A stretch of 64,000 bases of DNA from Akkermansia muciniphila (GCA_945883905.1 CAMCYL010000004.1:2190-66189), one strand, 5' to 3'. Shown: positions 9,202 to 63,376, counted from the stretch's first letter. Notes: generated from the sequence alone by a model not told the origin. A program made the numbers and translations.

Positions 9202-9334
9202 AGGATAAACCTTTAATAAGAATATTCTTATTAAATAAAATAGCAAGTTTCTTTAATAAAAGATTACTTATTAAGCCCAGATTCTGCTTTAGGAATCGAT
9301 TTTATCTGTAAAGCATGTCACCAGAATGGTGAAA

Positions 9335-32010: not shown

Positions 32011-32293
32011 TAAAAATATTGAGAATGCAAATTTTAATAATAGTCCAAGGCTGGAACGAATTAATGTATGAGATGAAGTGGGGGAACTGGGGGTTGGAGC
32101 AACGGCAGGAGTTGGGTATGATCGAGTGATGATTGATCGCTACAAGGAGACGTGAAGCGTTGAGGCCTCACACAATGTTGATCTCGGCTTCAGGTATGAC
32201 TTCAAATTTATAATCTAAAGATTTTTTCATAAAACTTGAAAGTATCCTCTAGCGATCTTAATATTATCTGTGTTAAAAATTTTTTTGAATAAA

Positions 32294-33310: not shown

Positions 33311-33527
33311 TAAAACCGTTTCAAATACTCTCGCTTCGCCTTCGTGCTCATTTTTGTTTCGTGGTAACCACGAACTTGAGTCAACGAATCATTTCGCACT
33401 TTGCAAATTCTTACCTCCGGTAACATTTAATGTGAGTCAATGCGCATGCAATAAGAGATAATATAAAATATTGATTTTATCTAAAAGTAGGTTACATGTA
33501 TAACATAAACTATTTTTACAAATTAAA

Positions 33528-34301: not shown

Positions 34302-34392
34302 AATGGTTAGGATTGTCGACAGAAATTGCATTGTTATTTAGGGTGACGATAGATTAACAAAAGATTTTTGAATAAAAGCAAAAAGCATAATT

Positions 34393-35796
34393 ATGATAAA
34401 AAACATTCAGAATTCTAAAACCTATCGATGCGGAACATTAGTTTACACAAAAATGGGTTTGATTTCATTGTTTTCGTGGCTTCTCTGGGGAGATTTTTGC
34501 TATATACTAATGGAAAAAGTAGTTCCTACACTTGTTCCGTTAAAGTTAAAGGAAATGGGGTTTAGTGCAACTGTGATGGGCGCCATGATGGTGACCATTC
34601 CTTCAGTTCTTAATTTTACGATTACTCCGATGGTAAGTTATCAAAGTGATCGTTGTCGCAGTCATTGGGGGAGACGAATTCCTTATATTCTTGCTTCAAC
34701 GCCCTTTGTGGCATTATTACTCGTCATGATCGGTTATTCAAAACCGTTAGGAGAGTTGCTTATAGGGCTTATCCCCTTTGAACTATCATCGACCACTTTT
34801 TTTGTTGTTTGGATGGGTTTTCTCCTCACCTTCTTTCAATTCTTTAACATGTTTGTTAGTTCTGTTTTTTACTATCTTTTTAATGACGTCGTGCCACCTG
34901 AATTGATTGGTCGTTTTACCTCTTTATTTAGAATGATTAGCTATTTTGCAAGTGGATTATATAATCTTTATATTTTTAAACATGCCGAGACTCACATGAC
35001 AGAGATTTTTGTCGGAATTTCAATTATTTATCTTATTTCATTTATAATGATGGGATTGAAAGTGAAAGAAGGTCAATATCCTGAGATTATTTCAGAAATT
35101 GAGAATCCACCACGCTTTTTAGAAAAAGTACAATCGTACTTTAAAGACTGTTTTTTTCATCCTATCTATCGAAATGTGTATGCGGGACATGTTACATGGT
35201 ATTTGGGAACCATGATTAATGGTGCATTTTTATTATTATCAGCACAGTCATTTGGTTTTAATTTGGAGCAGTACGGAAAAATTTCTGCAACCTCTGAAAT
35301 ATTTTGTGCTTTCTTGTTTATTCCTCTCGGATGGGCGGTTGATCGCTTTCATCCCATACGAATAATGATGATAGGAACAGTTTGGTATTTTCTCTCAATG
35401 ACCATGCGATTGTTGTTTTTTTTCGGAATATTTTCTGGAAATCATTTATTTGTTTTGTGGGGGTTTGTTTTTATGTTAGTCGATATCGGAGGCGCTATTT
35501 ATAATGCAGCTGAATTCCCGATTTTAATGAAACTTTTTCCAAAGAAATTTTATGGGCAATTTTGCTCAGCAATGTCTATGGTACGGGCAATTTTTCTTTC
35601 CGTTGGCGGAATATTGGCAGGTCTATTTCTTGATTATATTCAACGAACTTTTCAGTTAGAGGGAGGACGTCAGTATCAACTGATCCCGCTGTGGTCAATG
35701 TTGTTTTCAGTATTAAATTTTGTTTTTATTTTCCGCGCGTACACTCTATGGAAGAAACTTGGCGGAGATCATACGTACCATCCTCCATTAAGATAA
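34393..35796 (+). CDS. MFS-type (glycoside-pentoside-hexuronide-like) transporter
   Basis: 467 aa with about 12 predicted hydrophobic helices throughout. Confidence 0.65.
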   Translation: MIKNIQNSKTYRCGTLVYTKMGLISLFSWLLWGDFCYILMEKVVPTLVPLKLKEMGFSATVMGAMMVTIPSVLNFTITPMVSYQSDRCRSHWGRRIPYILASTPFVALLLVMIGYSKPLGELLIGLIPFELSSTTFFVVWMGFLLTFFQFFNMFVSSVFYYLFNDVVPPELIGRFTSLFRMISYFASGLYNLYIFKHAETHMTEIFVGISIIYLISFIMMGLKVKEGQYPEIISEIENPPRFLEKVQSYFKDCFFHPIYRNVYAGHVTWYLGTMINGAFLLLSAQSFGFNLEQYGKISATSEIFCAFLFIPLGWAVDRFHPIRIMMIGTVWYFLSMTMRLLFFFGIFSGNHLFVLWGFVFMLVDIGGAIYNAAEFPILMKLFPKKFYGQFCSAMSMVRAIFLSVGGILAGLFLDYIQRTFQLEGGRQYQLIPLWSMLFSVLNFVFIFRAYTLWKKLGGDHTYHPPLR

Positions 35797-35943: not shown

Positions 35944-37266
35944 TCAATCGTTTTTCGTTTTTAATAATTCTCGTATGACGTTTTTCATTTTGACTTCGAT
36001 ATTCGAAGAGCAAAAAGCTGCCGCACAACAAACTTCGTATCCGCCCTCTTGATATGCCTTTTTGGTTGGAATATAGCCAGGAGTGCAGTCGCCAAGCCCG
36101 GCAAAAGCGACAAACTGCTTGCCTGCAACTTTTTTTCCGTAAAGTTGATACTCAATAAACGGCTCCCCAGGAAGAGATAAAATTTGAGCAGATCCAATTT
36201 TATATAAAAAAATTCTTTGTTGGATAAGTTGCTTGCGATTAATTTGTGCGCCTCGCATGGCGAGAAGAGAATATCTCTCAAAAGAATCAACTTTGGGATC
36301 AATCACTTTTTTCTTCCAGTTTTTGAGGCTGCCAAGAAGCTTATATGGAAAATCAATCAATAATGATTTAACTCGTATATCACTTGCTTGTTCTTTCTGT
36401 AAACTAGAACTTTTAATCGATTTTAGAATTCCTTGAGCAAGTCTACTTCCAAATATCCTATAATTTTTCTCTGTATTAAGTGTTGAATATTTTCCAAGTG
36501 TAATTTGACCCTGACAGCCAGAAAAATAGACAAATGGTGTTCCTGGATATTTTTTTTGTAGGATAAGATGCATTTCGCCGACCATTTCTGAAGAATACAT
36601 TTGTAATCCTATAGAAGATTGTGGATGGGTAGCATAAAAACTTAAAGCGCCTAAAAGTTTTTGTTTTCGATCCCAAAATGTGACTGATTGAAGCTCAGGA
36701 TCAATAAGACCCTCAGGTTCTTGTTGAAGTTTTTTGTCTCGGCAAATACTCCATCGAGTGGCTCTCACTTTTCCCTTTTTATCAAGGATACGCCGATTAG
36801 AAGCCATTTTTTGGATAATCGTTTTGCCAAGGCCTATTTTATCAACCGCTTCAAATCGAGATAACGAGTCCCGAATCCCCTTTTTCATCAAACGAGATAC
36901 CCGCTTCCACCATCCCCTCTCCTTAAAAGTGAATCCATAGGCAAAAGGACGCCGAGAATCAATTTTTTCTGCATAATCGTCATCTCTCAGAAATGGTGCC
37001 TGATGTTGATGAACCGAATGCAACATGACATGATCTTCATTCGTCTTTGCCGCACGAGCAATAAGTTTTTTCCATTCTCTATAAAATCGACCTCCTATTT
37101 CACAATAATCAACTGCACAAAATACGGTTCTAATTTTGTTTTCTTCTAAAATAATACCCCTTGCCCATTGAGGATCTCGAATCCCATTTGAAATCGGAAG
37201 GAGTCCGCCACAAAGCGGAGCTCCTACAAGTCCAGTGACCTCAATTTGAAAAGAGGTAAGCTTCAT
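35944..37266 (-). CDS. Neutral-ceramidase-N-terminal-like hydrolase (hypothetical)
   Basis: ..GIRDPQWARGIILEEN..VFCAVDYCEI..VMLHSVHQHQAP.. parallels the ceramidase_alk N-domain pattern (..saTHTHsgP). ATGA overlap with the upstream gene. Confidence 0.35.
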   Translation of the reverse strand: MKLTSFQIEVTGLVGAPLCGGLLPISNGIRDPQWARGIILEENKIRTVFCAVDYCEIGGRFYREWKKLIARAAKTNEDHVMLHSVHQHQAPFLRDDDYAEKIDSRRPFAYGFTFKERGWWKRVSRLMKKGIRDSLSRFEAVDKIGLGKTIIQKMASNRRILDKKGKVRATRWSICRDKKLQQEPEGLIDPELQSVTFWDRKQKLLGALSFYATHPQSSIGLQMYSSEMVGEMHLILQKKYPGTPFVYFSGCQGQITLGKYSTLNTEKNYRIFGSRLAQGILKSIKSSSLQKEQASDIRVKSLLIDFPYKLLGSLKNWKKKVIDPKVDSFERYSLLAMRGAQINRKQLIQQRIFLYKIGSAQILSLPGEPFIEYQLYGKKVAGKQFVAFAGLGDCTPGYIPTKKAYQEGGYEVCCAAAFCSSNIEVKMKNVIRELLKTKND

Positions 37267-39452
37267 AATAAATACTCGATGGTTAAAAGTTCATAAGCAT
37301 TGACCTGAGGAACAGTAAGAAGCAATCCCCCTATTTGATTTTCAAAAAGAATCTCTTGTTTTGTCACTTGTGAAGTCACTCTTGTGACCTGTTGTACCTG
37401 TAATTTTATAGTGATCGATTGAAGTGGATGATGAGCACGGATCGGCCGAATCATATACCCCGTAGCATTGACAATGTGAAGTTGGAGCCCCCTTGTATTT
37501 TGGCGCAATTCGATCGCAACACTTTCTGGTGCATTTGTCTCAATTTGAAAGTCTTTCTGCAAGACCTTTCTTAAAAGAGAGCGAAAAAGTGCTTGATGAT
37601 CTGGAGGGGTATAACGCTTAAAATGATCAAACCAAGCGGCTCCAATGCCGACAACTTGACCTTTACCACGAGAGACCGCCCATAGCGTTCCAAATTCTTG
37701 AGATTCATGTACGGGCATATAAGCGATTCCATTGGGTGTCATCGGACACGCAAAAACAGAGGCTTCATCAAGTAGCTTCACCTTAAGGCTATAAAATGGT
37801 CGCGAAAAAATGCGACCTTTTTGAAATTCCTCTAAAGGCATTTGTAACTGCATGTAATCTTCAAGTGCTGAAGGTTTAAATCCACCGTTTATGGATTGAA
37901 TTCCCAGAAAGTGCATCCAAGTGGCATCATCAGTTGGATTTCCGCTTGCATCATATAACCCTGATTCGAAGGTTGAAATTAAAATACCTCCTTGTTCGAC
38001 AAAGTGCCGAATTTTCAGGCGCTGTTCTTGTGAAAGGCACGCCATATTGGGGAGAATTAAAATCTTTAAAGCGGCAAGTCGTTCTGAATCGAAGAGATGT
38101 TCGTCCCATAGAATTTGAAAAGGAAGATGCATACGAGTTAAAACCTCAAAACATCCTTTAATTTCCTTATTGAGAATTTCTGCGGAGACTTTACGGCGTT
38201 CCTTGAGATCTTTTTTTTCTCGACCATCCCCTTGATCTAAAATTAAGTTCACTTCAACGCCAGAGCCCACATTTTTAATCATTCCTGACTGCGTTGAATT
38301 ATAATAATAAAGGGTTTGATTTGAGATTAAAACACCGATCTCAGCCGCAGATCGGCTCTCAGACAAATAGTCTTCGATAGAATGAAGCGTGGCGTAACTT
38401 CCTGCACTTGCGAGTGCGTTTTCAGGATCGTCATGGAGAGCCTTCATATTAACTGCAATCCAAGGATGAGAGCCTCCTGCAACAGTTTGCGCTATCGCAG
38501 TTTGAATTTCACCCGCTGGAAGTGGAGTGTAATGCCAACCACTCATCATATGATGGATATAAAGAAGACCAGGAGCCGATGAGGCCGATAAAAATCGAGA
38601 CATGTGCAAAGTGTCAAAGAGACCTTGATCGTACTTGTTGGCATAATAAAATTCCTCTGCAGAATTAAACGTTTGTACGCTTTCCATTTTAAATGGGCAA
38701 CGAGCGATATCCATAGCAAAAGTATCATAGCCGCCTCCGTTAATCCAAATGGCGGCTTCAGAATGGACTGCTTGAGCCGCTTTTTGAGCATCTCGCATGA
38801 AAGCGACCCATGATTTCTTTCGAAATTCTTGAAGTCGTCCCCATAATGGATTTCCCCAATCTTCCCATTCTGGCATCTCTGCCTGAGAATTTTCTTTAGC
38901 GAACTGCTTTCGACAGTGCTCACAGTAACAGGCCTCGGGAAAAATAAGCGGACCATCTAGAAACACGCCATCAAATCCAACATAAAGAATCTCCTGAATA
39001 GATTGGAATGCCCAATCTCTCCAAGGAGAATTCACACACATGGTGATTCCATTGCCGTAAAGAGGATAACGATCTCCATAGAGAGTACCATCTCTAAATC
39101 GTTGCTCCCAGTCTTCGTGTCCCTCCCGAAAACTTTTTTTAAACCAATGCATGTTTAAATAGGAGATCAGCTTGACATCAACTTTCTTTGCCTCTGAAAT
39201 CCAATCCTTTAAAATTTGAAAGTTGTTTGATTTGCTTGGAATTTCTCCGTTGACCCAAGGAGCATCGGGTTCGTGACCTAAAAAAACATTCACCCATTCT
39301 ACATTAGCGTTCCAAAGTGTTTTTGCTTCTGGAGCAAATGAACGAAGATCAATATTCTGAATTTTTTGAAAAGGTTCGATATCACGACGAATCATGCGAA
39401 CTGGACGATTCCACCACGAGTTATTGCTAGACGAGAGGAGGGTTGTTTTCAT
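37263..39452 (-). CDS. GH42-like / TIM-barrel glycosidase-like protein with a beta-galactosidase-trimerisation-type (GATase1-like) middle domain, cytoplasmic
   Basis: ..VFLDGPLIFPEACYCEHCRKQF.. (Cys cluster as in GH42-like enzymes). ..LKILILPNMACLSQEQRLKIRHFVEQGGILISTFESG.. No signal peptide. Confidence 0.4.
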   Translation of the reverse strand: MKTTLLSSSNNSWWNRPVRMIRRDIEPFQKIQNIDLRSFAPEAKTLWNANVEWVNVFLGHEPDAPWVNGEIPSKSNNFQILKDWISEAKKVDVKLISYLNMHWFKKSFREGHEDWEQRFRDGTLYGDRYPLYGNGITMCVNSPWRDWAFQSIQEILYVGFDGVFLDGPLIFPEACYCEHCRKQFAKENSQAEMPEWEDWGNPLWGRLQEFRKKSWVAFMRDAQKAAQAVHSEAAIWINGGGYDTFAMDIARCPFKMESVQTFNSAEEFYYANKYDQGLFDTLHMSRFLSASSAPGLLYIHHMMSGWHYTPLPAGEIQTAIAQTVAGGSHPWIAVNMKALHDDPENALASAGSYATLHSIEDYLSESRSAAEIGVLISNQTLYYYNSTQSGMIKNVGSGVEVNLILDQGDGREKKDLKERRKVSAEILNKEIKGCFEVLTRMHLPFQILWDEHLFDSERLAALKILILPNMACLSQEQRLKIRHFVEQGGILISTFESGLYDASGNPTDDATWMHFLGIQSINGGFKPSALEDYMQLQMPLEEFQKGRIFSRPFYSLKVKLLDEASVFACPMTPNGIAYMPVHESQEFGTLWAVSRGKGQVVGIGAAWFDHFKRYTPPDHQALFRSLLRKVLQKDFQIETNAPESVAIELRQNTRGLQLHIVNATGYMIRPIRAHHPLQSITIKLQVQQVTRVTSQVTKQEILFENQIGGLLLTVPQVNAYELLTIEYLL

Positions 39453-39460
39453 AAAATTTT

Positions 39461-40633
39461 TTATATGTTTTTATAATTTAATAGATTTTCACGTAATGCG
39501 AGTGCGGCCGCCCCTTCTGCGGTTGCGGTGTGATCAAAAGAGGAGATTAAAATCTCTAAATTTTTAAGCGCATGAGGAAGACAACGCATCGAAAGTTGTT
39601 GTCGTAAAAGAGTCAATAGTTTTTCTCCTGTGTTAGTCAGACGTCCGCTGAGAATAATTTTTTCAGGATTAAGTAACGTGACTGTCGAGGAGATCCCAAT
39701 CCCAAGAAATTTAACAATCTCCATAAAAATTCCAAAAGCCGCCTTGTCTGAGGTTTGTAACGCTTTTGAGAAAGCAGAATAATCAAAGGACTCTAAATTT
39801 AAAACCGTATTAACGTTTTCTTGTTTAAGTCCGTTGATCCGTTTTTCTAAAGATATTTTACCAATGACCGACTCTAAACATCCGCGATTGCCACATAAAC
39901 AATGAGGCCCATTCTCCTCAACGATAAGATGACCGATTTCAAGCGCACATCCGTTAAAACCGTTATAAATTTCCCCGTTTTGAATTAAACCAGAGCCAAT
40001 CCCATGATCGAGTTCAATATGAAGTAAACTGTACGGTCGTGGATAAGGGAGAGCTCTATATTCACGATATGCACGCGCATTATTCGCAGAATAAAGTTGC
40101 ACGGGGACTTGCACGATCTTCTGAATCCAATGACAAATCGGAATTAATTCCCATCCTTGAATGTTGATTGCTTTTAAAGAAATTCCTTTTTGATTATCAA
40201 CAAGTCCAAGATCCGCAACGGCGATCGCTCGATAAGGGATTCCGATTCGATCACTTTTCTGGAGTTGATTTTTAAGAAGTTGAGTCAGGGCTTCATGAAC
40301 GTCTTCAACCTTGGGATGAGATGAAAGAGGGAGTTGTTCGGCTCCTTCCAGATTTCCACAAGCATTTAAGGTCACAAAAATAATTTCGTCATCCCGAATT
40401 TCAATCCCTCCATAATATCCATGCCGTTCATTAATTGAAATTTCAGGGGCTTTTCTTCCAGTTTTTTTGCTCTTCCTATCTGGCTCTAAGAGAATCCCCT
40501 TCTTTTTAAGGCTATTTACGGCGTCATAGAGAGTCGCAGGTCGAATTTGAAACTCCTCAACAAGCTCAATTCGCGTCATCTTTTCTCGTTGATAGAGTTT
40601 GTTTAAAATATTTGAATGAAGGTTTTTTATCAT
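39461..40633 (-). CDS. ROK-family transcriptional regulator (NagC/XylR type)
   Basis: N-terminal wHTH ..MTRIELVEEFQIRPATLYDAVNSLKKKGIL... ROK Zn motif ..GHLIVEENGPHCLCGNRGCLES... It lies 8 nt upstream of the next gene on the minus strand. Confidence 0.85.
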   Translation of the reverse strand: MIKNLHSNILNKLYQREKMTRIELVEEFQIRPATLYDAVNSLKKKGILLEPDRKSKKTGRKAPEISINERHGYYGGIEIRDDEIIFVTLNACGNLEGAEQLPLSSHPKVEDVHEALTQLLKNQLQKSDRIGIPYRAIAVADLGLVDNQKGISLKAINIQGWELIPICHWIQKIVQVPVQLYSANNARAYREYRALPYPRPYSLLHIELDHGIGSGLIQNGEIYNGFNGCALEIGHLIVEENGPHCLCGNRGCLESVIGKISLEKRINGLKQENVNTVLNLESFDYSAFSKALQTSDKAAFGIFMEIVKFLGIGISSTVTLLNPEKIILSGRLTNTGEKLLTLLRQQLSMRCLPHALKNLEILISSFDHTATAEGAAALALRENLLNYKNI

Positions 40634-40796
40634 TTTTAATTCAATTAAGTATTATAAAATATTTAAAAATACATTAATAATAAATATTTAATTTGATTAT
40701 GTATTATAATGGATGATAATTAAGAGTCAATCAGAATTATTGGATATTTTTCTGATCTTAGTGTCGATTCGAAACTAAAGCTTGCGAGGAGAAAAA

Positions 40797-41873
40797 ATGG
40801 CTAAAATAAGGCTCGGTATTATCGGAGCGGGAGGAATTGCTCGTAGAAGAGTACTTCCAGCCTTGAGTGATTGTGACAGAATTGATGTTGTCGCAGTAAT
40901 GGATCCACATACGGCCGCTGAGGTTGCAAAAGAATTTCAGATTTCAAAATTTTTTACTAATGAGGACGAGTTATTGAAGGATGCCTCTATAGATGCGGTT
41001 TATATTGCCTCCCCTGTTTTCGAGCACGAACGACAACTTGTTGCATGTGCAATGGCAAATAAGCACGTTCTTTGTGAAAAACCGTTGACGATGACTCTCC
41101 AACAAACAGAATCTGTGATTTCACTATTTCATCAAAGAAAACTCTTTTTACAAGAAGGGTATATGATGAAATTTCATGGCGCACATCAATGGATATCGAA
41201 AACAATTCGAGAGGGAAAAATCGGTAAGGTCGTTTCTCTGAGAGCGCAATTATCTTGCTGGTATCCTCCAATGAAAGGGGCATGGAGGCAGGTCAAATCA
41301 AAAGGAGGAGGGGGATGTTTAGTCGACATGTCGACGCATCTTTACGATCTATTGCTTGATTTTGCTGGGCCCATTCAAGGAATCTCTGCGCGAGTACATC
41401 ACCAAGTTCATGATTATGAAGTCGAGGATTCAGCCGTGACGTTACTCGATTTTAAATCAGGAGCGATCGGAACGGTTGAATCGTTTTTCTGTGTTCCCGA
41501 TCATGCGGTTCCGACGCGGCTGGAAATCTATGGAACTCAAGGAGCTATTTTATCTGAAGGAACGATTGGTCAGGGGGGTAGCGGAAGCTTAAAGGCAATT
41601 TTAAACGATGGACAAGAACGATACGAGTCGCAACAAAACAAGGGATCTATAAAATCCGGATTTGAAGATGTCTCATATCAAGAGGTAAATCCTTACCGTG
41701 CTGAGTTTGAACTTTTTGCAGAATGTATTCTGCAAAATCGACCTCTTCCCACCAATAATTCAAAAAATGCTTGGAGAATTTCCCACCTCGTTAATGCGGC
41801 TTATCGATCCTCTGATGAACAGCGACGTATCGAGGTCCCCTCAGAAGAAGTTTATTTAAAACTAATGAATTAA
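40797..41873 (+). CDS. Gfo/Idh/MocA-family oxidoreductase
   Basis: MAKIRLGIIGAGGIARRRVLPAL.., ..VLCEKPLTMT... The ATG at 40797 is preceded by gaggag. Confidence 0.85.
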   Translation: MAKIRLGIIGAGGIARRRVLPALSDCDRIDVVAVMDPHTAAEVAKEFQISKFFTNEDELLKDASIDAVYIASPVFEHERQLVACAMANKHVLCEKPLTMTLQQTESVISLFHQRKLFLQEGYMMKFHGAHQWISKTIREGKIGKVVSLRAQLSCWYPPMKGAWRQVKSKGGGGCLVDMSTHLYDLLLDFAGPIQGISARVHHQVHDYEVEDSAVTLLDFKSGAIGTVESFFCVPDHAVPTRLEIYGTQGAILSEGTIGQGGSGSLKAILNDGQERYESQQNKGSIKSGFEDVSYQEVNPYRAEFELFAECILQNRPLPTNNSKNAWRISHLVNAAYRSSDEQRRIEVPSEEVYLKLMN

Positions 41874-41904
41874 AATAAAAAAAGAATAGAAGTAAGGGCC
41901 ATAT

Positions 41905-43011
41905 ATGAAAATCGGATTGATTAAAGAGATTAAGAAACATGAGTATCGAGTTGGACTAACGCCGATGAGCGCCAAAGAGTATATTCAATCGGGCCATACC
42001 GTGCTTGTGGAATCTCAGGCAGGAATAGGATCTGGCTTTTCAGATGAGGATTATAGCCGTGCCGGATGTCAGATTGAATTATCTAAGAAAGCAATTTTTG
42101 ACCAATCTGAAATGATAATTAAAGTAAAAGAGCCGTTGCCTGAAGAGTTTGAGCTATTTCAAGAGGGACAAATACTTTACACTTATCTTCATCTAGCCGC
42201 AGATCGTCCTCAAGCTGAAGCACTTTTACGAAAAAAGGTGAGTGCCATTGCTTATGAAACAGTCGTTGAAAGCGATCGCTCTCTTCCATTGCTTGTTCCG
42301 ATGAGTCAGATTGCGGGACGACTTGCAATCCAAGAAGGAGCTAAATACCTTGAGAAACCGATGGGAGGAAGAGGGGTTCTATTGGGAGGAGTTCCAGGAA
42401 TTCGCAAAGGGAAGGTGCTTATTTTAGGGGGAGGGATCTCTGGGTTAAATGCCTGTCAAATGGCTGTTGGCTTAAATGCAGATGTCACGATTGTGGATAT
42501 TTCTTCAAAGCGTCTTGCTGAATTGGATTCAATGTTTGGAGGTCGAGTTAAAACTCTCTATTCAAATTTTTATAATATTGAAACAGAACTTGTGGATGCT
42601 GATTTAGTCATCGGTGCGGTTTTAATTCCTGGGGCTGCAACTCCTAAGTTAATTAAAAAAGAGCATCTCACAAAAATGAAACCCGGCTCTGTGATTGTTG
42701 ATGTCGCTGTTGATCAAGGAGGTTGTTGTGAGACAACCCGTGCGACTTATCACGATCAACCGACTTATGTGGTGGATGGAGTGATTCATTATTGTGTTGC
42801 GAATATGCCTGGAGCTGTAAGTCTTAGTTCGACTTTTGCGCTAACGAGTGTGACTAATCGATATGGACTTCAGATCGCAAATCAAGGACTTGAAGCGGCT
42901 TTAAAAAACTCGCAACCACTAAGGGAGGGATTAAATTGTTATCAAGGACGCTTGATGAATCAAGCCGTCGCAGAAGCGATTGATATTCCATTTGAACCTT
43001 ATTTAAATTAA
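41905..43011 (+). CDS. ald: Alanine dehydrogenase
   Basis: MKIGLIKEIKKHEYRVGLTP.., ..VLILGGGISGLNA.., ..VDVAVDQGGCCETTRATYHDQPTYVVDGVIHYCVANMPGAV is canonical Ald. Confidence 0.92.
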   Translation: MKIGLIKEIKKHEYRVGLTPMSAKEYIQSGHTVLVESQAGIGSGFSDEDYSRAGCQIELSKKAIFDQSEMIIKVKEPLPEEFELFQEGQILYTYLHLAADRPQAEALLRKKVSAIAYETVVESDRSLPLLVPMSQIAGRLAIQEGAKYLEKPMGGRGVLLGGVPGIRKGKVLILGGGISGLNACQMAVGLNADVTIVDISSKRLAELDSMFGGRVKTLYSNFYNIETELVDADLVIGAVLIPGAATPKLIKKEHLTKMKPGSVIVDVAVDQGGCCETTRATYHDQPTYVVDGVIHYCVANMPGAVSLSSTFALTSVTNRYGLQIANQGLEAALKNSQPLREGLNCYQGRLMNQAVAEAIDIPFEPYLN

Positions 43012-43052
43012 TTGTTCATGTATAAAGAAGTCCGAAACAAAGGAAGACACAA

Positions 43053-44372
43053 ATGAAAAAAAATAACGCTGGCGATTTTCGATATGCCGTGGGCGAAAAA
43101 ACAGTTCCTTGGAATGCCGTAGGTGAATTTTATGATGTTGAAGATGCCGTTCAAGTCGCGCGATTTTTATTTCCAACACAAGAACCGAATAGTGAGTATC
43201 AATCAGGTCTTAAATTAGTTCAAGAAGGACTCATGAAGATGCGTCAACAAGGAAAGCCTGCGACTAAGTTGACTCTCGGAAAAACGGTTCAAAAAGCGGA
43301 GGAAATCATTGCTGAGTACACAGGATCTAAATATGCCTGCTTGACGACGAACTGGACTGCGGGGATGGAGATCGCCTATAAACTTTCAGGATTACAGCCA
43401 GGTGATGAGGTCATTATGCCAGCGATTACTTTTGTCGCTACAATGGCCTATCCGTTGAGTATTGGAGCAAAAATTGTTTTTGCAGATATTGATCCTGAAA
43501 CGATTAATATCGATCCCGCTGACATTGAACGTAAAATTACTCCTAAAACTAAAATGATCGTTCCAGTTCATATCGGTGGAACTCCTTGTGACATGGATCC
43601 GATTATGGCGATTGCTAAAAAGCATAGTCTTTATGTCATGGAAGATGCCGCCCATGGACTCGGAGGAAAGTATAAAGGAAAAAGTCTTGGGTCTATCGCT
43701 CATTTTGGAGGACATTCACTCCATGAAGTGAAAAATATTAATTCTTTTGGAGAGGGGGGGACTCTCTTAACGAACTTAGACTGTGGAGAGCAATTTTCGA
43801 AAGCCCGCTTTCTTGGGCTTGATTTCACAAAAAAAATAAAAAATTGGCTTTATGATATCTCTCCGATTATTGATCGCTTTGGTAAACCTCAAGTCGCAGG
43901 AAACCACTCCTTTACAGAGATTCAAGCATTAGGACTCATTCTTCAGATGAAACGGCTTGATGAGATTATTGCAAGACGGAAAAAAGCAGCTCAAAAAATG
44001 AATGAAATTCTAAAGCAAGAACGAGGAATTTTAGTTGAAAAAGCGGACACACAAGAAACTTATGGAACCCATCATCTCTATTTGTTGCGAATCGAACCAC
44101 AAATCGTTGGTGGAACCATTCAAGAGCTAACAAAAAAACTTTCAGACAAAGGGCTTACTTGTATTACTCACTTTGGGCCAATGTATCGATTCAATATTCT
44201 TAAATCTTTTGGGTATGATGAAGAGAGCATCGCAAAAAGTTGCCCTGTGACTGAGCGAATGTTTGACACATCCTATACGCATCTACCATTGTACCCATTG
44301 ACAGAGGAGCAAATTAACTTTCAAGCGAATGCCGTGGTTGAAGCGGTAAGAGAAATGAAATCAAACAAATAA
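43053..44372 (+). CDS. DegT/DnrJ/EryC1/StrS-family PLP-dependent sugar aminotransferase
   Basis: ..EVIMPAITFVAT.., ..VMEDAAHGLGGKYKGKSLGS.., ..SLHEVKNINSFGEGGTL (PLP-Lys followed by GEGG). Confidence 0.85.
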   Translation: MKKNNAGDFRYAVGEKTVPWNAVGEFYDVEDAVQVARFLFPTQEPNSEYQSGLKLVQEGLMKMRQQGKPATKLTLGKTVQKAEEIIAEYTGSKYACLTTNWTAGMEIAYKLSGLQPGDEVIMPAITFVATMAYPLSIGAKIVFADIDPETINIDPADIERKITPKTKMIVPVHIGGTPCDMDPIMAIAKKHSLYVMEDAAHGLGGKYKGKSLGSIAHFGGHSLHEVKNINSFGEGGTLLTNLDCGEQFSKARFLGLDFTKKIKNWLYDISPIIDRFGKPQVAGNHSFTEIQALGLILQMKRLDEIIARRKKAAQKMNEILKQERGILVEKADTQETYGTHHLYLLRIEPQIVGGTIQELTKKLSDKGLTCITHFGPMYRFNILKSFGYDEESIAKSCPVTERMFDTSYTHLPLYPLTEEQINFQANAVVEAVREMKSNK

Positions 44373-44377
44373 ATTTT

Positions 44378-47300
44378 ATGTCGAAAATGACAAAACTACT
44401 CTCGATTTGCATAGGGCTCGTTTTATTTACATATTTAAAAGCGGAAATCGTAATTCCATTTTTTGATAAACCTCCTGTGGTCGATGGTCGGGTGTCTGAT
44501 AAGGAATGGGATGGGGCTCCAACACTCGACTTGGTAGGGTTAAAAGGAGACCCGATTACAAAATTGGCTCAGGTCCGAGTTGCGTACGATCAATCAAATC
44601 TTTACTTTTTGTTTATTAATCAAGAACCTGTAATGAAAAATCTCCGAAACGATTTTACTCATACTGAAGAGCGGGATGTCCAGATTTGGAGTGATGATGT
44701 CGTGGAGATGATTATTGATCCCTACCGCGCTGAAGCATCCGATGCTTTTCATATTCTTACGAATGCTCGGGGGATCGTCTATGATGCCCACAATCGCAAT
44801 ACCGTTTGGAATCCCCAAATAAAAATTTTAACTTCTAAAGAACAAGAACGTTGGATCGTCGAAGTCTCTCTTCCTTTTCGTGATATTGGATATACCCCGC
44901 AAGGAGGGGAACGATGGGATATGAATTTTGCTCGGCAAGAGAAACAAAAGGGAGAGTTGAGTAATTTAGTCGGTAAAGAAGGAGAAGCTGGCTTCATTCA
45001 TCCGAGTCGCAGAAAAACATTTATTTTTGGTGCTACCAAAAAAAATACGGTTGAACTTTTAGGCTTTTTAAAAAAGGGAGAACCTTTTGCTCAACTTCAG
45101 GTCAATAATTTTGGTACAGAAAAGAAGGAATGGATGATACGAGTGAATAGCACTCAAGATGGAAGTTCCCTCTCGACAGAAACAAAAAAAATTAGTTTAG
45201 ACGTTAAAAAAAGTGAAAAAATAGAGATTCCTTACATCATTAAGACTGGCACGCAACTTATTTCATTGGATGTTTTTGATCTGAATCTGAAGAAATCTGC
45301 CTATAAAAATCGAATCGAATACACAATCTATGATCCAAACGCATCGACTGCGCAACGTTATTGGAAAATAGAGGATCCACTTTACACAGAGCTTTTAGGT
45401 CAAGATTCTTACGGAATTATTAAAAACACGGGAATGCCAATTTTTGGAACAGGATTCGTTCATTTTAAATTTCGCACAGCAGGACTTCAGTATGGATTTC
45501 CATATTCTGAATTTGAGTATTATCAAACGGCGGCGCGTGATAAAATAAGAAATGTAATTCCTTGGCCTACCATTGAAGATCCTCGATATCCTAATTTTAG
45601 CCATTTTTCAAGGCAAACAGGAAGTAAAGCCTGTTTCTATCCATATTTTATCTTTGTTCCAGAAGTTCCCACTGTAAAAAGACATCCATTTCTCTATGAT
45701 CCTCGTGTAGAAGATTATTTTTTAAAAGATATCGAGCGAGGAATTAAAAAATATGGGGATATCATTGAAAGTCTTTGGTTTACAGATGAGCAATCAAGTG
45801 GAATGGCAGAATATGGAGTTCTTTTCTACGAAGAGCAGAAGGAAACATACCCCTTTATTCTTCAAGTGAATGAAACGGTTAAAAAAGAATATGGATATGG
45901 AAAGTGGGGGATTCCTGAAAATAAAGGAGATCGTAATCCCTTTCGATGGATCGCATGGAGACGTTGGCTTGCTGACCGCCAAGTCAATTTAATGTCGCGT
46001 GCTTTTAAATTGACAAAACAATTAGATCCTAAAATAGTCTTCATTTCTGAAGATCCTCAAGCGGTTCACCAAGCGGTAGATTATAGTCGTTGGAAAGGAA
46101 TATGTGATTTAGTCACACATCAATTATTTCCTCGTAAGACACCTGAGGACTATCACTTCGGCTTTATCACAAAACATATCGCAGATCTATCAGGTGTTTC
46201 TGAAATATGGCCCTGTCCGCATGTTGAAGAGTATGCAGGCAGCTTTACCCCTGAAGAAACGGTTGGTCTTTTAAGTCAAATGGTTCAAAATGGAGCCACG
46301 GGAATGACAATGGCGCCTGTCGATGCCATTGGAATGAGTGAAAAAAAGAAGACCCTACACGATGAAGAATTTGGAGCTCCTGATCGCTGGAAAACAGTTC
46401 TAAATGTCATTGATGAGTTGCGCCAAACTAAAAAACCAATCTATCCTAAAGCCGACCATGCTCTTTTATATTCGACGGATACGATTGCCACTTATCCCAT
46501 GTATGAAACGAATGAAGAATTACCGATGGGTTATACACTGTTAGGACCTAGTACTCGTGGGTGGTTTGATTTTATCAGCGACTATCAAATAGAGAGAAAA
46601 GAAAAGAATTTGAATCATTATAAGGCAATTTATATTGCAACTGCGAAGTATCAAAATGAGAAAACCGTCCGAGAGCTAATGAAATATGTGGAGGAGGGAG
46701 GTACCCTTGTTTCTTTGGATCCGGAAGTATTCTCCTTTTTTTCGAGTGGAGACTCATCAGCAGACTTGAGAGAAAAATTATTTGGCATTGAGGTTCTTGG
46801 ATCTGACTCACACTCAAGTCGAATTCAATGGGGAGAGATTAAAGACCTCGTTCAAGGAGGAACCCCTCAAAAGATTAAAATTAAAAATGAAAAAGTAACT
46901 GTTATCGGGAGCTTCGAAGATGGAACCCCTGCAATTGTTTCGAACACTTATGGCAAAGGAAAAGCGATTTACTTTGCATCATCCCCTTGTTTTTCACGTT
47001 GTGTGAATCATACAGGATGGAGAACTGCGTTGAAGAAGTTCCAAATCTCCTTAGGAATTCAAATCGATCAAAAAATTTGGCGGTACCAATTACCGATGAA
47101 TTTAGCTGCCAAACTACCAAGCAGAAAAAATAATTGTCTGACCAATAACTATGTCGAATGGCGTCAAATGAATCCAATTCCCATAGGAAATATAGATACA
47201 AAAGGAACATATCAATATGAAATTGCTCCAGATGCCGTCGCAGATATATCAGCAGTGAACACAGAAATTCCCTTTGAAAAAGGGAAGCTAACGAATCGTC

Positions 47301-47674
47301 GTGCAGCGGCTAATGCTGGAAATGTGGATTACGGTATAGGGAAGATCGAAGATTGGATTGTGACCTATGATAAAGAACTTAAAGGAGTCATCACCTACAA
47401 TCTTCAAAAACCGTATCAGATAGAGGGGGTGTCGGTAACCTTTTCGGGAATATTACCAAGCCTTAAGGTTATGCTCTCTGATGATGGGAAGAATTGGAGA
47501 GAGGTAGGGACTTATCATGAGAAAAAAGCAAAAGAGACCAGTCCATTGGATGTACGTTGCTTTGAAATCACATGGAAAAAATCTAAGGCACAATATATGA
47601 AGCTTGATTTAGGAGTTCGCGAACTAGGAGAGACTCTTTCTCTTGCTGAAATCGATATTTTTGGTCTCCCCTAA
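44378..47674 (+). CDS. Giant secreted multidomain protein: CBM9-like N-terminus, glycosidase-like/GATase1-like core, discoidin (F5/8 type C)-like C-terminus (paralog I)
   Basis: Signal peptide MSKMTKLLSICIGLVLFTYLKAE. PPVVDGRVSDKEWDGAP..SDDVVEMIIDP is CBM9-like. Motifs shared with 54653-57637: YSRWKG, ADLSGV.EIWPCPH.E, NGATG, GGTLV.LDP.VF, KIWR.Q.P, CLTNNYVEW, KGKLTNR. The C-terminal end ..SDDGKNW..YMKLDLG..LSLAEIDIFG. Confidence 0.6.
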   Translation: MSKMTKLLSICIGLVLFTYLKAEIVIPFFDKPPVVDGRVSDKEWDGAPTLDLVGLKGDPITKLAQVRVAYDQSNLYFLFINQEPVMKNLRNDFTHTEERDVQIWSDDVVEMIIDPYRAEASDAFHILTNARGIVYDAHNRNTVWNPQIKILTSKEQERWIVEVSLPFRDIGYTPQGGERWDMNFARQEKQKGELSNLVGKEGEAGFIHPSRRKTFIFGATKKNTVELLGFLKKGEPFAQLQVNNFGTEKKEWMIRVNSTQDGSSLSTETKKISLDVKKSEKIEIPYIIKTGTQLISLDVFDLNLKKSAYKNRIEYTIYDPNASTAQRYWKIEDPLYTELLGQDSYGIIKNTGMPIFGTGFVHFKFRTAGLQYGFPYSEFEYYQTAARDKIRNVIPWPTIEDPRYPNFSHFSRQTGSKACFYPYFIFVPEVPTVKRHPFLYDPRVEDYFLKDIERGIKKYGDIIESLWFTDEQSSGMAEYGVLFYEEQKETYPFILQVNETVKKEYGYGKWGIPENKGDRNPFRWIAWRRWLADRQVNLMSRAFKLTKQLDPKIVFISEDPQAVHQAVDYSRWKGICDLVTHQLFPRKTPEDYHFGFITKHIADLSGVSEIWPCPHVEEYAGSFTPEETVGLLSQMVQNGATGMTMAPVDAIGMSEKKKTLHDEEFGAPDRWKTVLNVIDELRQTKKPIYPKADHALLYSTDTIATYPMYETNEELPMGYTLLGPSTRGWFDFISDYQIERKEKNLNHYKAIYIATAKYQNEKTVRELMKYVEEGGTLVSLDPEVFSFFSSGDSSADLREKLFGIEVLGSDSHSSRIQWGEIKDLVQGGTPQKIKIKNEKVTVIGSFEDGTPAIVSNTYGKGKAIYFASSPCFSRCVNHTGWRTALKKFQISLGIQIDQKIWRYQLPMNLAAKLPSRKNNCLTNNYVEWRQMNPIPIGNIDTKGTYQYEIAPDAVADISAVNTEIPFEKGKLTNRRAAANAGNVDYGIGKIEDWIVTYDKELKGVITYNLQKPYQIEGVSVTFSGILPSLKVMLSDDGKNWREVGTYHEKKAKETSPLDVRCFEITWKKSKAQYMKLDLGVRELGETLSLAEIDIFGLP

Positions 47675-47743: not shown

Positions 47744-48145
47744 ATGAAAAACACCTCAAGTCGAGATAGCGGCTTTAGCTTAATTGAGGTGCTTGTTGCG
47801 ATTACATTATTGATGGTGGGGATGCTAGGCATATTAGCACTCCTCCCTGTTGGAATGATCGACTATCATGATGCAAAGATGAAAAGCGTTGAATCGCAAA
47901 TGGTTGATTTTGTTGTTAAACAATGTTCAACCGGTAGTCCCTACGAACTGACTGGTCATAAATTTTACTTTGACCAACAAGGAGTCCTTTGTTCTGAAAA
48001 GGACTATGAGTATCTTATCACACTTTCAGTAAATCAAGTTCATGGGATACCGAATAATCAATTACTTACGCTTCAATTGAAAATTATTCGAAAAGGAAGT
48101 CGGAATCCAACGTACCAAAACACACAGCTTTTTAAAAGAACTTAA
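47744..48145 (+). CDS. Prepilin-type N-terminal cleavage/methylation domain protein, GspI-like minor pseudopilin (Verru_Chthon cassette-type)
   Basis: MKNTSSRDSG|FSLIEVLVAITLLMVGMLGIL has G at -1, F at +1 and E at +5. 133 aa. Confidence 0.8.
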   Translation: MKNTSSRDSGFSLIEVLVAITLLMVGMLGILALLPVGMIDYHDAKMKSVESQMVDFVVKQCSTGSPYELTGHKFYFDQQGVLCSEKDYEYLITLSVNQVHGIPNNQLLTLQLKIIRKGSRNPTYQNTQLFKRT

Positions 48146-48147
48146 AT

Positions 48148-49209: not shown

Positions 49210-49212
49210 GCT

Positions 49213-57637: not shown

Positions 57638-57724
57638 AGTTATTCTCATTATAATGTTCTTAAAATATTTTTGCAAATATCAAACATGTTAATAATTGCA
57701 ATAACAACTTATATAAGACAATTA

Positions 57725-59232: not shown

Positions 59233-60039
59233 CTAAAGTTTTGAGGATCGAGAGAGATTCGCTTCTTCAATCGCCTTACGGATGGCAGGTGTCATTTCAC
59301 GAATCATCTCTTCGTCAAGAATTTTGCCAGTTTCTGCGGAGGCTGGGAACGGATCTCCCATGACTCCAACTTTCACTTCAGGGCTTTGAATTGTTGTTGG
59401 GATTTCTTCGCGAAAAGAAGAAAGCTTTGTTTTTACTTGAAATGCATCCGGATCTGTTTTCATTTTACTAAACATCGGCTCTTCATCGATGATCATTTTG
59501 GAGCGAACAACCTCGGGAGACCAATACATGAGAAGCGAGGTTTCAGCATCTGCGGCATGGTAGTCTTGAGCATTAAACATTTTAACCCAAGTAGGAGAGT
59601 ATTCCCACATTAGGGGAGTGAGAATTAGAGAGTCGTGATATCGAGGGTTCATCCATTTAAAAATTCGGAGAGTTTCATTAATATGAGTCATGACTTCACT
59701 CCCTCCATGGCCTGCTAGAATAATAAAATTACGAAATCCTTGAAGATGAAGAGATTCGATAATATCGCAAACGAGGCTTGAAAACGTCGTGGGCTTGATA
59801 TTCACAGTACCTGCAAGCATTCCTCCAGAAAAACAATAAGGAATTGTAGGAGCAACGAGAATGTCTAAGGCCTTAGCAAGTTTGAGCCCTATGACGTCTG
59901 CGTTACGAATATCGGTGTCTAAGGGAAGATGAAAGCCGTGTTGTTCGACCACTCCGTAAGGAATAATAATTGATTGATTCGTTTGCAGATACTTTTGAAG
60001 TTCGTTGACGGTCAGAAGACCCAGTTGATGAATTTTCAT
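59233..60039 (-). CDS. Creatininase-family amidohydrolase
   Basis: ..IIIPYGVVEQHGFHLPLDTDI.. and ..ILAGHGGS.. are creatinine amidohydrolase family metal-binding motifs. Confidence 0.75.
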   Translation of the reverse strand: MKIHQLGLLTVNELQKYLQTNQSIIIPYGVVEQHGFHLPLDTDIRNADVIGLKLAKALDILVAPTIPYCFSGGMLAGTVNIKPTTFSSLVCDIIESLHLQGFRNFIILAGHGGSEVMTHINETLRIFKWMNPRYHDSLILTPLMWEYSPTWVKMFNAQDYHAADAETSLLMYWSPEVVRSKMIIDEEPMFSKMKTDPDAFQVKTKLSSFREEIPTTIQSPEVKVGVMGDPFPASAETGKILDEEMIREMTPAIRKAIEEANLSRSSKL

Positions 60040-62161: not shown

Positions 62162-62282
62162 AACGGAGTGAAATTAATCAATTAATTTTATCAGCAAGTA
62201 AATGCTTTGAGATCAATGGCTGGGCCTTTCCTCCAAATCCGCAATGGGATGTCACCACTTTCGGATTAGGAGAGAGGCTTTC

Positions 62283-63302: not shown

Positions 63303-63376
63303 AATAAATATTTGGTTTCTTCCCGTTCTCAGTGGGGTGAATTCGAAGAGCGGGCTTGAAATTCTAAAGAGGGTTA

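Follow-up and report, generated by a model that had tools for sequence, protein, structure and literature searches.

A conserved Gfo/Idh/MocA oxidoreductase and DegT aminotransferase pair, joined by alanine dehydrogenase in an operon-like unit of Akkermansia muciniphila, as a candidate amino-sugar deamination module

We identified an operon-like unit within a 64,000-nucleotide stretch of DNA recorded as Akkermansia muciniphila (the window) in which three intact genes (40797-44372, plus strand) encode, in order, a Gfo/Idh/MocA oxidoreductase (Gfo), an L-alanine dehydrogenase (Ald) and a DegT/DnrJ/EryC1-family PLP aminotransferase (DegT). Comparison with other genomes gives good support to the Gfo-DegT pair as a conserved, uncharacterised sugar-breakdown module present across several phyla, to which Ald is a rarer addition with weaker support than the pair itself. 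We tentatively propose, with a little less than even confidence, that the locus encodes the cytoplasmic steps of an operon for glycan utilisation under ROK control, in which the conserved DegT-Gfo module would be completed by an Ald-closed cofactor loop. We take the host to be a gut-type member of the Lentisphaerota, Victivallales-like in affinity. The features of the locus are given in Table 1.

Table 1 Features of the locus and its surroundings in the window
Feature	Coordinates	Strand	Evidence
MFS/GPH-type sugar transporter	34393..35796	+	PF07690 and PF13347 matches
Neutral-ceramidase-N-terminal-like protein, 440 aa; candidate N-deacylase	35944..37266	-	weak PF04734
ROK-family (NagC/Mlc-like) transcriptional regulator	39461..40633	-	PF00480
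Divergent intergenic region, 163 bp, AT-rich; presumed promoter/operator region	40634..40796	.	sequence read
Gfo/Idh/MocA oxidoreductase, AFR-like subfamily	40797..41873	+	PF01408, PF22725, PF02894 matches
L-alanine dehydrogenase (Ald)	41905..43011	+	TIGR00518 equivalog
DegT/DnrJ/EryC1-family PLP aminotransferase	43053..44372	+	PF01041
CBM9 / GH42M-like / F5/8-type-C secreted protein, 1098 aa	44378..47674	+	Pfam matches
Creatininase-family metal amidohydrolase	59233..60039	-	PF02633 at 158 bits

An earlier note on this DNA had placed the three genes in a row, with gaps of 31 nt (Gfo-Ald) and 41 nt (Ald-DegT), directly upstream of a giant secreted protein and a pseudopilin cassette. This layout was borne out by the ORFs, domains and residues; the gene for the 1098-amino-acid protein follows DegT after 5 nt and two N_methyl (pseudopilin-type) genes lie beyond it at 47744 and 48148. 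The Gfo ATG is found 7 nt downstream of an AGGAG. A scan of the window, the output of which was not above chance, returned no terminator-like sites in the Gfo/Ald/DegT gaps, the only plus-strand sites being intragenic, at 41464 in Gfo and at 46694 in the GH-like gene. The three genes and the GH-like gene are arranged in the operon-like manner of one transcription unit. Promoter-like hexamers in the divergent region upstream of Gfo were not above chance, and no operator motif was found in common between this region and the related clusters of one other lineage (L006/L010). The divergently encoded ROK regulator (PF00480, 147 bits; NagC model, 143 bits and under its cutoff) has a counterpart of 42-44 % identity in the equivalent divergent position of the L006/L010 clusters. 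The 1098-amino-acid protein is a candidate glycoside hydrolase with a signal-peptide-like N-terminus, showing only weak similarity in the PDB, to GH42 beta-galactosidase, and it has a paralog of 31 % identity in the window (54653-57676, minus strand). The MFS/GPH-type transporter is a possible importer for the locus, although it is not homologous to the DegT-adjacent MFS genes of L005/L015.

Gfo displays the N-terminal Rossmann and C-terminal domains of its family (PF01408, 91 bits; PF22725, 101 bits; PF02894, 86 bits) together with the EKP motif, as a CEKP beginning at residue 93, and the Asp/His pair; the key residues Lys95, Asp177 and His181 are all present. The solved protein most similar to it is 1,5-anhydro-D-fructose reductase (AFR, PDB 2glx/4koa; 2glx at 115 bits), which acts as a C-2 ketoreductase on a free sugar and whose EKP lysine and Asp/His catalytic pair are kept in the window protein, Asp177 and His181 aligning with the latter. 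At about 115 bits, however, Gfo is not an ortholog of AFR, and whereas AFR is NADPH-dependent (Ser33), Gfo carries Asp36 at this NAD/NADP-discriminating position, which suggests a preference for NAD(H) that would match the NAD-dependent Ald. We know of no link between AFR and an aminotransferase. From these sequence features we propose Gfo as a candidate NADH-dependent keto-sugar reductase.

DegT scores 262 bits to PF01041 against a gathering cutoff of 19.8, and its Lys227 (HEVKN) aligns with the PLP lysine of WecE (HETKN), identifying it as of the aminotransferase type and not of the type with the dehydratase histidine. None of the NCBIfam equivalogs considered (WecE, PseC, LegC, ArnB, DesI, RfbH) was matched at its cutoff, the best match being to PRK11706 (WecE-type, 222 bits versus 375), with PseC at 210 versus 423. 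Orthologs of DegT are at least 51 % identical while the next relatives reach at most about 40 %, delimiting a distinct subfamily with a conserved N-terminal extension of ~70 amino acids and the invariant N-terminal residues D8, F9, R10, Y11, P19 and W20. The AF2 model (pLDDT 82.7) adopts the fold-type I sugar-aminotransferase fold and by Foldseek (E about 1e-27 to 7b0m, 7b0d, GDP-perosamine synthase, WbpE and BtrR) is equally near to nucleotide-sugar and free-substrate enzymes; no determinant that discriminates pyruvate from 2-oxoglutarate, or a free from a nucleotide-linked substrate, could be recognised in its sequence or fold. We propose DegT as a candidate amino-sugar:2-oxoacid transaminase working in the catabolic direction.

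Adjacency of a Gfo gene within one genome says little because genes of this family are common, with three in the window, where ald is single-copy. Their abundance, and the fact that most DegT orthologs have neither Gfo nor Ald nearby, would fit a reading in which the three genes share no function and simply lie side by side where genes for sugar utilisation are densely packed. This we regard as highly improbable, as the orthologous Gfo subfamily adjoins DegT in five lineages besides the window and the set of ROK, DegT, Gfo and Ald genes is found again in L006/L010. In all four look-ups of window-Gfo orthologs of 50-53 % identity (L177, L178 (Sumerlaeota), L179/L180 (Planctomycetota) and L181 (Verrucomicrobiae)), DegT lies directly upstream or with a single ceramidase-like gene between. 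A similarly arranged pair occurs in the Atribacterota (L069), its Gfo being a subfamily member with 50 % identity to that of L010. In these phyla the DegT partners come from another subfamily and share 31-34 % identity with the window DegT.

The surroundings of these pairs are those of sugar uptake and breakdown. The Atribacterota pair is flanked by two CUT1 sugar ABC transporter sets, that of L181 by GH127, GH172 and GH2, and the L006/L010 clusters by GH20 and GH42. N-deacylases of four kinds (creatininase-like, PIG-L/BshB1-like, ceramidase-like and M20) recur around the loci, and a divergent NagB homolog among the neighbours matches GlcN6P deaminase structures by profile (E 4e-15). No glycosyltransferase or NDP-sugar gene was found in any locus table examined. 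Taken together, transporters, GHs, N-deacylases and the NagB homolog, with no nucleotide-sugar or glycosyltransferase genes, favour catabolism of a free amino sugar and support contexts that are catabolic rather than biosynthetic. The ceramidase-like protein of the window shares 22 % identity (E 2e-24) with the gene between DegT and Gfo in L179/L180 and might, as a candidate N-deacylase, feed the aminotransferase.

The commonest neighbour of the window-DegT subfamily in other genomes is a creatininase-family gene, which is immediately upstream of DegT in five lineages (L005, L006/L010, L015, L019 and L024). Its product could be the true partner of DegT, in which case the substrate would not be a simple hexosamine. 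Candidates would then include amines of the N-acylated or lactam type, diamino sugars derived from nonulosonates, and compounds resembling amino acids, as with Fic25, a DegT-fold enzyme that acts on a non-sugar substrate; Gfo may then be a C-1 or C-3 dehydrogenase, of which its family has many, and not the reductase of the DegT product, with no closure of cofactors. On this reading the NagB-like partner could just as well be a lactonase-type member of its superfamily. Within the window, however, the creatininase-family gene (Creatininase 99, MftE 92 and IolN 47 bits, all under cutoff) is 15 kb from DegT on the opposite strand, and the pairing of the Gfo subfamily with DegT is consistent across phyla, the nearest solved Gfo relative being a ketoreductase. 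We judge this explanation quite improbable and retain the Gfo-DegT pair as the proposed functional core of the locus.

Gfo/Idh/MocA and DegT enzymes that interconvert alcohol, ketone and amine at one carbon are likewise paired in NtdC/NtdA (kanosamine), GnnA/GnnB, WbpB/WbpE and IolG + MosB. To our knowledge all of these characterised pairs are biosynthetic, utilize glutamate or glutamine and lack an Ald; the genomic context in the window, in contrast, is catabolic. The earlier note had seen in the locus a mirror of NtdC/NtdA, in which sugar C-3 oxidation precedes transamination. The pairing of dehydrogenase and aminotransferase on which that comparison drew is real and conserved, but NtdA is a poor match to DegT (102 bits, against 164 for WecE) and Gfo is closest to AFR, a C-2 ketoreductase of free sugars. 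The kanosamine pathway was rejected on the NtdA score and on the absence of NtdC from the Gfo matches at E <= 1e-15; no HAD phosphatase (NtdB-like) was found in the operon. A system of the GnnA/GnnB or WbpB/WbpE type, assessed through a UDP-GlcNAc 3-dehydrogenase model (86 bits on Gfo versus a cutoff of 450), WlbA (76 bits) and WbpE (127 bits) rather than the GnnA/GnnB sequences themselves, was also rejected, as neither WlbA nor WbpE is the top match and the pair is surrounded by transporters, GHs and deacylases, where such a system would be expected to show linkage to lpx or O-antigen genes. The scores to NtdA, WbpE and WlbA all fall below those to relatives of unrelated function.

Run in the biosynthetic direction, Gfo would oxidise a sugar to a keto sugar with NAD+, DegT would aminate this with alanine, and Ald would remake alanine from pyruvate, NH4+ and NADH in a natural form of hydrogen-borrowing amination. 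Such a route might lead to something like kanosamine or an inosamine, or to an amino sugar of the cell envelope, with GnnA/GnnB, WbpB/WbpE and NtdC/NtdA as models. The precedent of the characterised pairs is on its side, as is the AlaDH equilibrium, which lies towards alanine. Most orthologs of the window DegT stand alone among housekeeping genes such as those for ValRS, DapA and LpxK and are unusually conserved (63-72 %), so that a core biosynthetic role would fit too. Despite this we consider a biosynthetic role unlikely, since the pair keeps company with deacylases, GHs, importers of sugars and regulators that respond to them, and not with a glycosyltransferase, nucleotidyltransferase, N-acetyltransferase, phosphatase or exporter, and since its closest solved relatives are not NtdA, WbpE or WlbA. 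A DegT ortholog of 52 % identity in an Oscillospiraceae MAG, where lipid A is presumably absent, argues against a lipid A role. Two published systems running towards the amine are in keeping with biosynthesis, namely the synthetic ADH/TA/AlaDH cascades (PMC4336473) and the IolG/MosB route to scyllo-inosamine, although the latter also demonstrates that such a pair can use a free, non-nucleotide substrate (PMC6668481).

Within the catabolic reading that we prefer, the place of Ald is less secure than that of the pair. The window Ald is an alanine dehydrogenase by its TIGR00518 equivalog score (499 bits versus a cutoff of 392) and has Arg15, Lys75, His96 and Asp270, the catalytic residues known from AlaDH structures. 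Its closest orthologs, Lentisphaerota proteins of 74-76 % identity, occur in unrelated neighbourhoods, with GDH or ACT-domain genes beside the 74 % relatives, and by sequence it looks like an ordinary housekeeping ortholog. Ald was found inside the cluster only in the window and in L006/L010, among about 12 lineages with adequate flanks, and no Ald was present within 7-10 kb of the Gfo-DegT pairs of four other phyla. The L006/L010 clusters again encode the transaminase, AlaDH and reductase classes together, in a different gene order and with a co-oriented ald as last gene. Their Ald is non-orthologous to that of the window: at 52 % identity the L010 protein is more distant from it than a Spirochaetes Ald (66 %), so the Ald proteins of the two clusters come from separate lineages. 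This suggests that recruitment was independent, Ald having been recruited a second time in L006/L010. Conservation of genome context thus holds for the pair, in five other lineages, while the full triad extends to only one, and the interpretation of the earlier note stands in part, for the pair and its catabolic contexts but not for the triad as a general set.

This distribution leaves appreciable, if minority, weight to an account in which the Gfo-DegT pair is catabolic but works on glutamate/2-oxoglutarate, and Ald is an ordinary enzyme, either a chance member of the operon or one with a general part in nitrogen or redox handling, such as that of an NADH sink forming alanine in a fermenter. 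It would accommodate the Lentisphaerota orthologs and the four phyla without Ald, and most characterised DegT-family enzymes do use glutamate or glutamine, including MosB, which acts on a free cyclitol (PMC6668481). Against it, ald lies between Gfo and DegT with short gaps on either side, and with a non-orthologous Ald also in the L006/L010 cluster a single-copy gene would have had to enter the same operon by chance on two occasions, which is unlikely.

We propose instead that Ald is a candidate recycler of pyruvate and NADH with release of NH4+. Once an amino sugar (or aminocyclitol) has been imported and N-deacylated, DegT would take off its amino group to give a keto sugar, the ketone of which would be reduced to an ordinary sugar by the AFR-like, NAD(H)-type Gfo. 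Pyruvate would serve as amino acceptor where alanine dehydrogenase has joined the operon, in the window and one other lineage, and Ald would return alanine to pyruvate, releasing NH4+ and making NADH for the reductase. The net reaction would be amino sugar + H2O to sugar + NH4+ with zero net cofactor use. Here we infer the direction of deamination, the substrate, free-sugar specificity, the pyruvate/alanine pair and the sharing of NAD(H).

The earlier note was aware of no such three-enzyme cycle in glycan catabolism. That claim holds for glycans only, as the logic is already known from a bacterial taurine cluster and from synthetic cascades. In the ald-tpa-sarD cluster of Bilophila wadsworthia the taurine:pyruvate aminotransferase Tpa forms a carbonyl and alanine, Ald regenerates pyruvate and the NADH-dependent sulfoacetaldehyde reductase SarD converts the carbonyl to an alcohol, for a net conversion of amine + H2O to alcohol + NH4+ (PMC6386719). 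Bilophila is a gut anaerobe, and the three-enzyme logic and the clustering of the genes are identical. However, Tpa is not of the DegT family and SarD belongs to the iron-dependent alcohol dehydrogenases, not to the Gfo/Idh/MocA proteins, neither being homologous to the window DegT or Gfo; the substrate is taurine and not a sugar, and the pyruvate dependence demonstrated for Tpa is only proposed for DegT. The same three enzyme classes close an NAD(H) and alanine/pyruvate loop in synthetic redox-self-sufficient cascades of an ADH, an alanine-dependent transaminase and AlaDH (PMC4336473), though these are engineered systems that operate in the direction of the amine and employ omega-transaminases on non-sugar substrates. 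If the proposed loop operates, Ald would allow the module to strip amino groups without net cofactor cost, as in bacterial taurine use.

Three co-oriented open reading frames encoding a Gfo/Idh/MocA oxidoreductase (Gfo), an alanine dehydrogenase (Ald) and a DegT/DnrJ/EryC1 aminotransferase (DegT) lie in a row with intergenic gaps of 31 and 41 nt, an arrangement described in the earlier note which coordinates and domain calls bear out, as they do its placement upstream of a giant secreted protein, starting 5 nt past DegT, and of two pseudopilin (N_methyl) genes. Catalytic residues are in place in Gfo (Lys95, Asp177, His181), Ald (Arg15, Lys75, His96, Asp270) and DegT (Lys227), and DegT falls below the cutoff of every characterised equivalog model. 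A promoter and terminator scan, whose counts were not above shuffled expectation, gave no terminator-like site between the triad genes. Comparison of the spacers between the divergent genes in the window and in loci L006 and L010 (L-numbers denote loci fetched around homologues in other genomes) for a shared ROK operator returned only AT-rich low-complexity matches.

Features of the window and of related loci in other genomes, with coordinates and gene orders
Feature	Location	Strand	Remarks
dnaN	6927-8039
Fic-domain gene	8041-9246	-	adjacent to dnaN
EEP-family phosphatase/nuclease-like gene, SIS_2 sugar-isomerase-domain protein, MFS/GPH transporter	32270-35796		upstream of locus
Ceramidase-like protein	35944-37266	-	~440-450 aa; 3.5 kb upstream of Gfo
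GHL6/GH151-like protein	37263-39452	-	729 aa
ROK/NagC-like regulator	39461-40633	divergent from triad	163-bp AT-rich spacer between
Gfo/Idh/MocA oxidoreductase	40797-41873	+	all three family domains matched; AGGAG ahead of ATG
Alanine dehydrogenase (Ald)	41905-43011	+	TIGR00518 equivalog, 499 bits vs cutoff 392
DegT/DnrJ/EryC1 aminotransferase	43053-44372	+	PF01041, 262 bits
Secreted CBM9/GH42M-like/F5-8 protein	44378-47674	+	1098 aa
Two prepilin-type N_methyl genes (133, 353 aa), 1207-aa and 211-aa proteins, LacI regulator	47744-52836	+	co-oriented with triad operon
GH42M-like + F5/8-type-C paralog	54653-57676	-	31% identical to 44378-47674 protein
Creatininase-family amidohydrolase	59233-60039	-	66% identical ortholog of DegT-adjacent genes; 15 kb from triad
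Second sugar operon	60198-63997		DeoC/LacD (DhnA-type) aldolase - Gfo-family - PfkB kinase; DeoR regulator on opposite strand
NagB-like protein	L006:10581-11516
NagB-like protein	L010:9593-10528
NagB-like protein	L069:8896-9834
NagB-like protein	L178:9179-10111
Ceramidase-like gene between DegT and Gfo	L179:6347-7699		Planctomycetota
Ceramidase-like gene between DegT and Gfo	L180:2789-4141		Planctomycetota
Gene order	L069		Atribacterota; NagB-like - DegT - Gfo
Gene order	L177		frameshifted DegT - ceramidase-like fragment - Gfo
Gene order	L178		Sumerlaeota; DegT - Gfo - NagB-like (310 aa)
Gene order	L179/L180		Planctomycetota; DegT - ceramidase-like - Gfo
Gene order	L181		Verrucomicrobiae; DegT - Gfo; GH127, GH172, GH2 on flanks
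Poribacteria cluster	L028:3542-11194		Amidohydro_2 x2 - Gfo - ThDP enzyme - PIG-L deacetylase - xylose-isomerase-like TIM barrel - DegT

The Gfo subfamily of the window has members of 50-55% identity in Planctomycetota, Sumerlaeota, Verrucomicrobiota and Lentisphaeria, and in all four look-ups of Gfo orthologs a DegT gene was found directly upstream or with a single ceramidase-like gene in between. Scanning every fetched locus turned up the pair in Atribacterota also, enclosed by two sets of CUT1 sugar ABC transporter genes and a gene for a xylose-isomerase-like TIM barrel. The DegT partners in those phyla are 31-34% identical to the window DegT and represent a different subfamily, so that a single Gfo lineage has two DegT lineages as partners. 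Among solved structures the window Gfo is closest to 1,5-anhydro-D-fructose reductase (AFR; PDB 2glx/4koa), a free-sugar ketoreductase, with UDP-sugar 3-dehydrogenases scoring lower. AFR owes its use of NADPH to Ser33; the window Gfo has Asp36 at this position, suggesting that its cofactor is NAD(H), the same as that of alanine dehydrogenase. The pairing of DegT with an AFR-like Gfo constitutes a robust finding, a conserved and uncharacterised module whose role is probably catabolic.

Orthologs of the window DegT are 51-72% identical while the next relatives reach at most ~40%, a sharply bounded subfamily found mainly in Victivallales together with one Phycisphaerae and one Oscillospiraceae MAG; a metagenome scan gained only two more (L093, L094). 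Named homologues of window proteins point to Lentisphaerota, probably Victivallales, as the source of the DNA. We viewed gene neighbourhoods in ~17 ortholog lineages, of which 12 had flanks of 5 kb or more on each side. The full ROK/DegT/Gfo/Ald set appears again in a single further lineage (L006-L009 and L010-L012), in which a divergent ROK gene is followed in L006/L010 by creatininase-family, DegT, Gfo, (PIG-L), NagB-like (311 aa) and Ald genes, with GH20, GH42 and 3-keto-disaccharide-hydrolase-like genes on the flanks. Apart from the window and this lineage, neither Gfo nor Ald lies near the DegT orthologs of the ~17 lineages, so conservation of the triad extends to one further lineage but is missing elsewhere. 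Outside the window, the gene most often found right beside a DegT ortholog is of the creatininase family (five lineages); other orthologs adjoin housekeeping genes such as ValRS, DapA and LpxK. The DHDPS-family neighbour in L018 was considered as a sialate lyase and rejected, being a true DapA (372 bits). An N-terminal extension of ~70 residues in DegT contains invariant residues, D8-F9-R10-Y11 and P19-W20 among them, and is probably functionally important. Antisense ORFs of ~200-476 aa opposite DegT in L001, L004, L014, L020, L024 and L094 misled a naive ORF caller and most likely arise from sequence composition rather than being real genes.

Dehydrogenase and DegT pairs are familiar from biosynthesis (NtdC/NtdA, GnnA/GnnB, WbpB/WbpE), and to our knowledge DegT-family sugar aminotransferases have almost only biosynthetic examples (envelope sugars, antibiotics). 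The window DegT itself resembles nucleotide-sugar and free-substrate enzymes alike in sequence (25-31% identity) and predicted fold, Foldseek of the predicted structure matching WbpE, Per and WecE equally as well as BtrR and Fic25. In membership tests the locus fell outside all three of these biosynthetic systems, as well as outside IolG and MosB, which utilise free inositol as substrate and glutamate as donor (PMC6668481). The likeness to NtdC/NtdA drawn previously is a loose one, AFR being the solved enzyme nearest to the Gfo, and a GnnA/GnnB role in lipid A was ruled out by gene context and the Oscillospiraceae ortholog. We found no glycosyltransferase, nucleotidyltransferase or NDP-sugar-modifying gene beside the pair in any locus examined. 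Genes recurrent near the module include sugar importers (MFS, CUT1 ABC and one Liv-type ABC), regulators that respond to sugars (ROK, AraC), and glycoside hydrolases as well as esterases (AXE1, GDSL, SASA). Amide hydrolases recur too, in four kinds unrelated to one another, namely creatininase-like, PIG-L/BshB1-like, ceramidase-like and M20. As biosynthesis would need an N-acyltransferase after amination, deacylases would be senseless in that direction; upstream of an aminotransferase they would fit catabolism, in which an N-acyl amine would yield an amine and then a ketone.

The creatininase-family protein of the window meets no curated cutoff (creatininase, MftE, IolN), IolN being ruled out at 47 bits against a cutoff of 245, and similarity of the ceramidase-like protein to neutral ceramidase is confined to the N-terminal catalytic portion of the latter. 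We identified a NagB-like family of ~310 aa that always adjoins the DegT-Gfo pair; its members from a Sumerlaeota MAG and from the Lentisphaeria-like L010 lineage share 64% identity. Pfam gives no match for this family, and its profile hits solved glucosamine-6-phosphate deaminases at E 4e-15. The motifs MDE(Y/W) and GHxAFN(E/D)P are preserved, and the position of the NagB phosphate-binding Lys208 is seemingly lost. Neither a NagB-like nor a PIG-L gene is present in the whole 64 kb of the window. The Poribacteria cluster in L028 resembles those for inositol catabolism, and there too a DegT aminotransferase seems to be used catabolically.

The window Ald has many Lentisphaerota orthologs of 70-76% identity, and the two looked up have unrelated surroundings, one by a GDH gene and the other by ACT-domain and queuosine-type genes; it therefore looks like an ordinary cellular Ald now inside the operon. 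The L006/L010 Ald is 52% identical to the window Ald and thus more distant than a Spirochaetes Ald (66%), so the two clusters carry different Ald lineages. Judged from these sequences, this favours independent recruitment of Ald, and hence functional coupling, rather than inheritance, with two cases only. The earlier proposal of a cofactor-closed triad holds in its dehydrogenase-aminotransferase pairing, kept across phyla in catabolic-type contexts, but Ald joins in two lineages only. Closure of the cycle by Ald is a plausible addition in particular lineages, its chances being about even.

In the proposed pathway an N-acylated amino sugar would be freed by secreted GH-like proteins, imported and deacylated, after which DegT would move its amino group onto a 2-oxoacid and Gfo would reduce the resulting keto sugar with NADH. 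In operons with Ald, pyruvate would be the amino acceptor, with Ald remaking pyruvate and NADH and freeing NH4+. Net hydrolytic deamination amounts to ~ +10 kJ/mol at 1 M standard states and is slightly favourable at millimolar concentrations, a rough estimate from transformed Gibbs energies with alanine to lactate as the model; product removal would then set the direction. The design principle is already established in taurine metabolism. In the ald-tpa-sarD system of Bilophila wadsworthia, Tpa takes pyruvate, Ald restores it, and SarD with NADH reduces sulfoacetaldehyde (PMC6386719), while a synthetic version of the same three-enzyme network runs the opposite way (PMC4336473). The logic there is the same, with taurine as the substrate. 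The earlier note knew of no such three-enzyme cycle in glycan catabolism; this stands for glycans but not for the design in general, and no catabolic DegT/Gfo/Ald or DegT/Gfo/NagB-like module is described in the literature searched.

We tentatively propose, as a possibility somewhat short of probable, a transaminative breakdown of free amino or diamino sugars widespread in Lentisphaerota, Planctomycetota, Verrucomicrobiota, Sumerlaeota and Atribacterota, combining a catabolic DegT, an AFR-like Gfo and a divergent deaminase resembling NagB with N-deacylases of several exchangeable kinds (creatininase-like, PIG-L, ceramidase-like, M20), a breakdown that Ald would render cofactor-neutral in some Lentisphaerota as a sugar counterpart of Tpa/Ald/SarD. 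Conserved catabolic use of DegT, if true, would add a new means of nitrogen removal from amino sugars beside the NagA/NagB route, one used by PVC bacteria that degrade glycans as well as by Sumerlaeota and Atribacterota. Annotation of a recurrent unnamed gene set (DegT, AFR-like Gfo, NagB-like protein and several amidases) would benefit too. Were the Ald coupling true, it would be a natural sugar-level case of the hydrogen-borrowing alcohol/amine interconversion built artificially in biocatalysis, and the module enzymes could serve to add or remove amino groups on unprotected sugars.

The secreted protein adjoining DegT and its paralog are both ~1000-1100 aa, the former additionally with CBM9 and a signal-peptide-like N-terminus, no NCBIfam match and marginal PDB similarity; these two and the GHL6/GH151-like product are probably novel glycoside hydrolases. 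The genes from the EEP-family gene to the MFS/GPH transporter may be part of the same utilisation system, the SIS_2 protein matching PRK02947 above cutoff (251 bits). The 1207-aa and 211-aa proteins beyond the N_methyl genes are without Pfam match. The Gfo-family protein of the second sugar operon, from which the creatininase-family gene is divergent, has levoglucosan dehydrogenase as its top, sub-threshold match. The presence of dnaN and a GC skew whose sign flips from minus to plus around 6-8 kb suggest that the replication origin region lies within the window. The G+C content is 35-41% over the glycan-utilisation region (~28000-58000) compared with 42-47% in the flanks.
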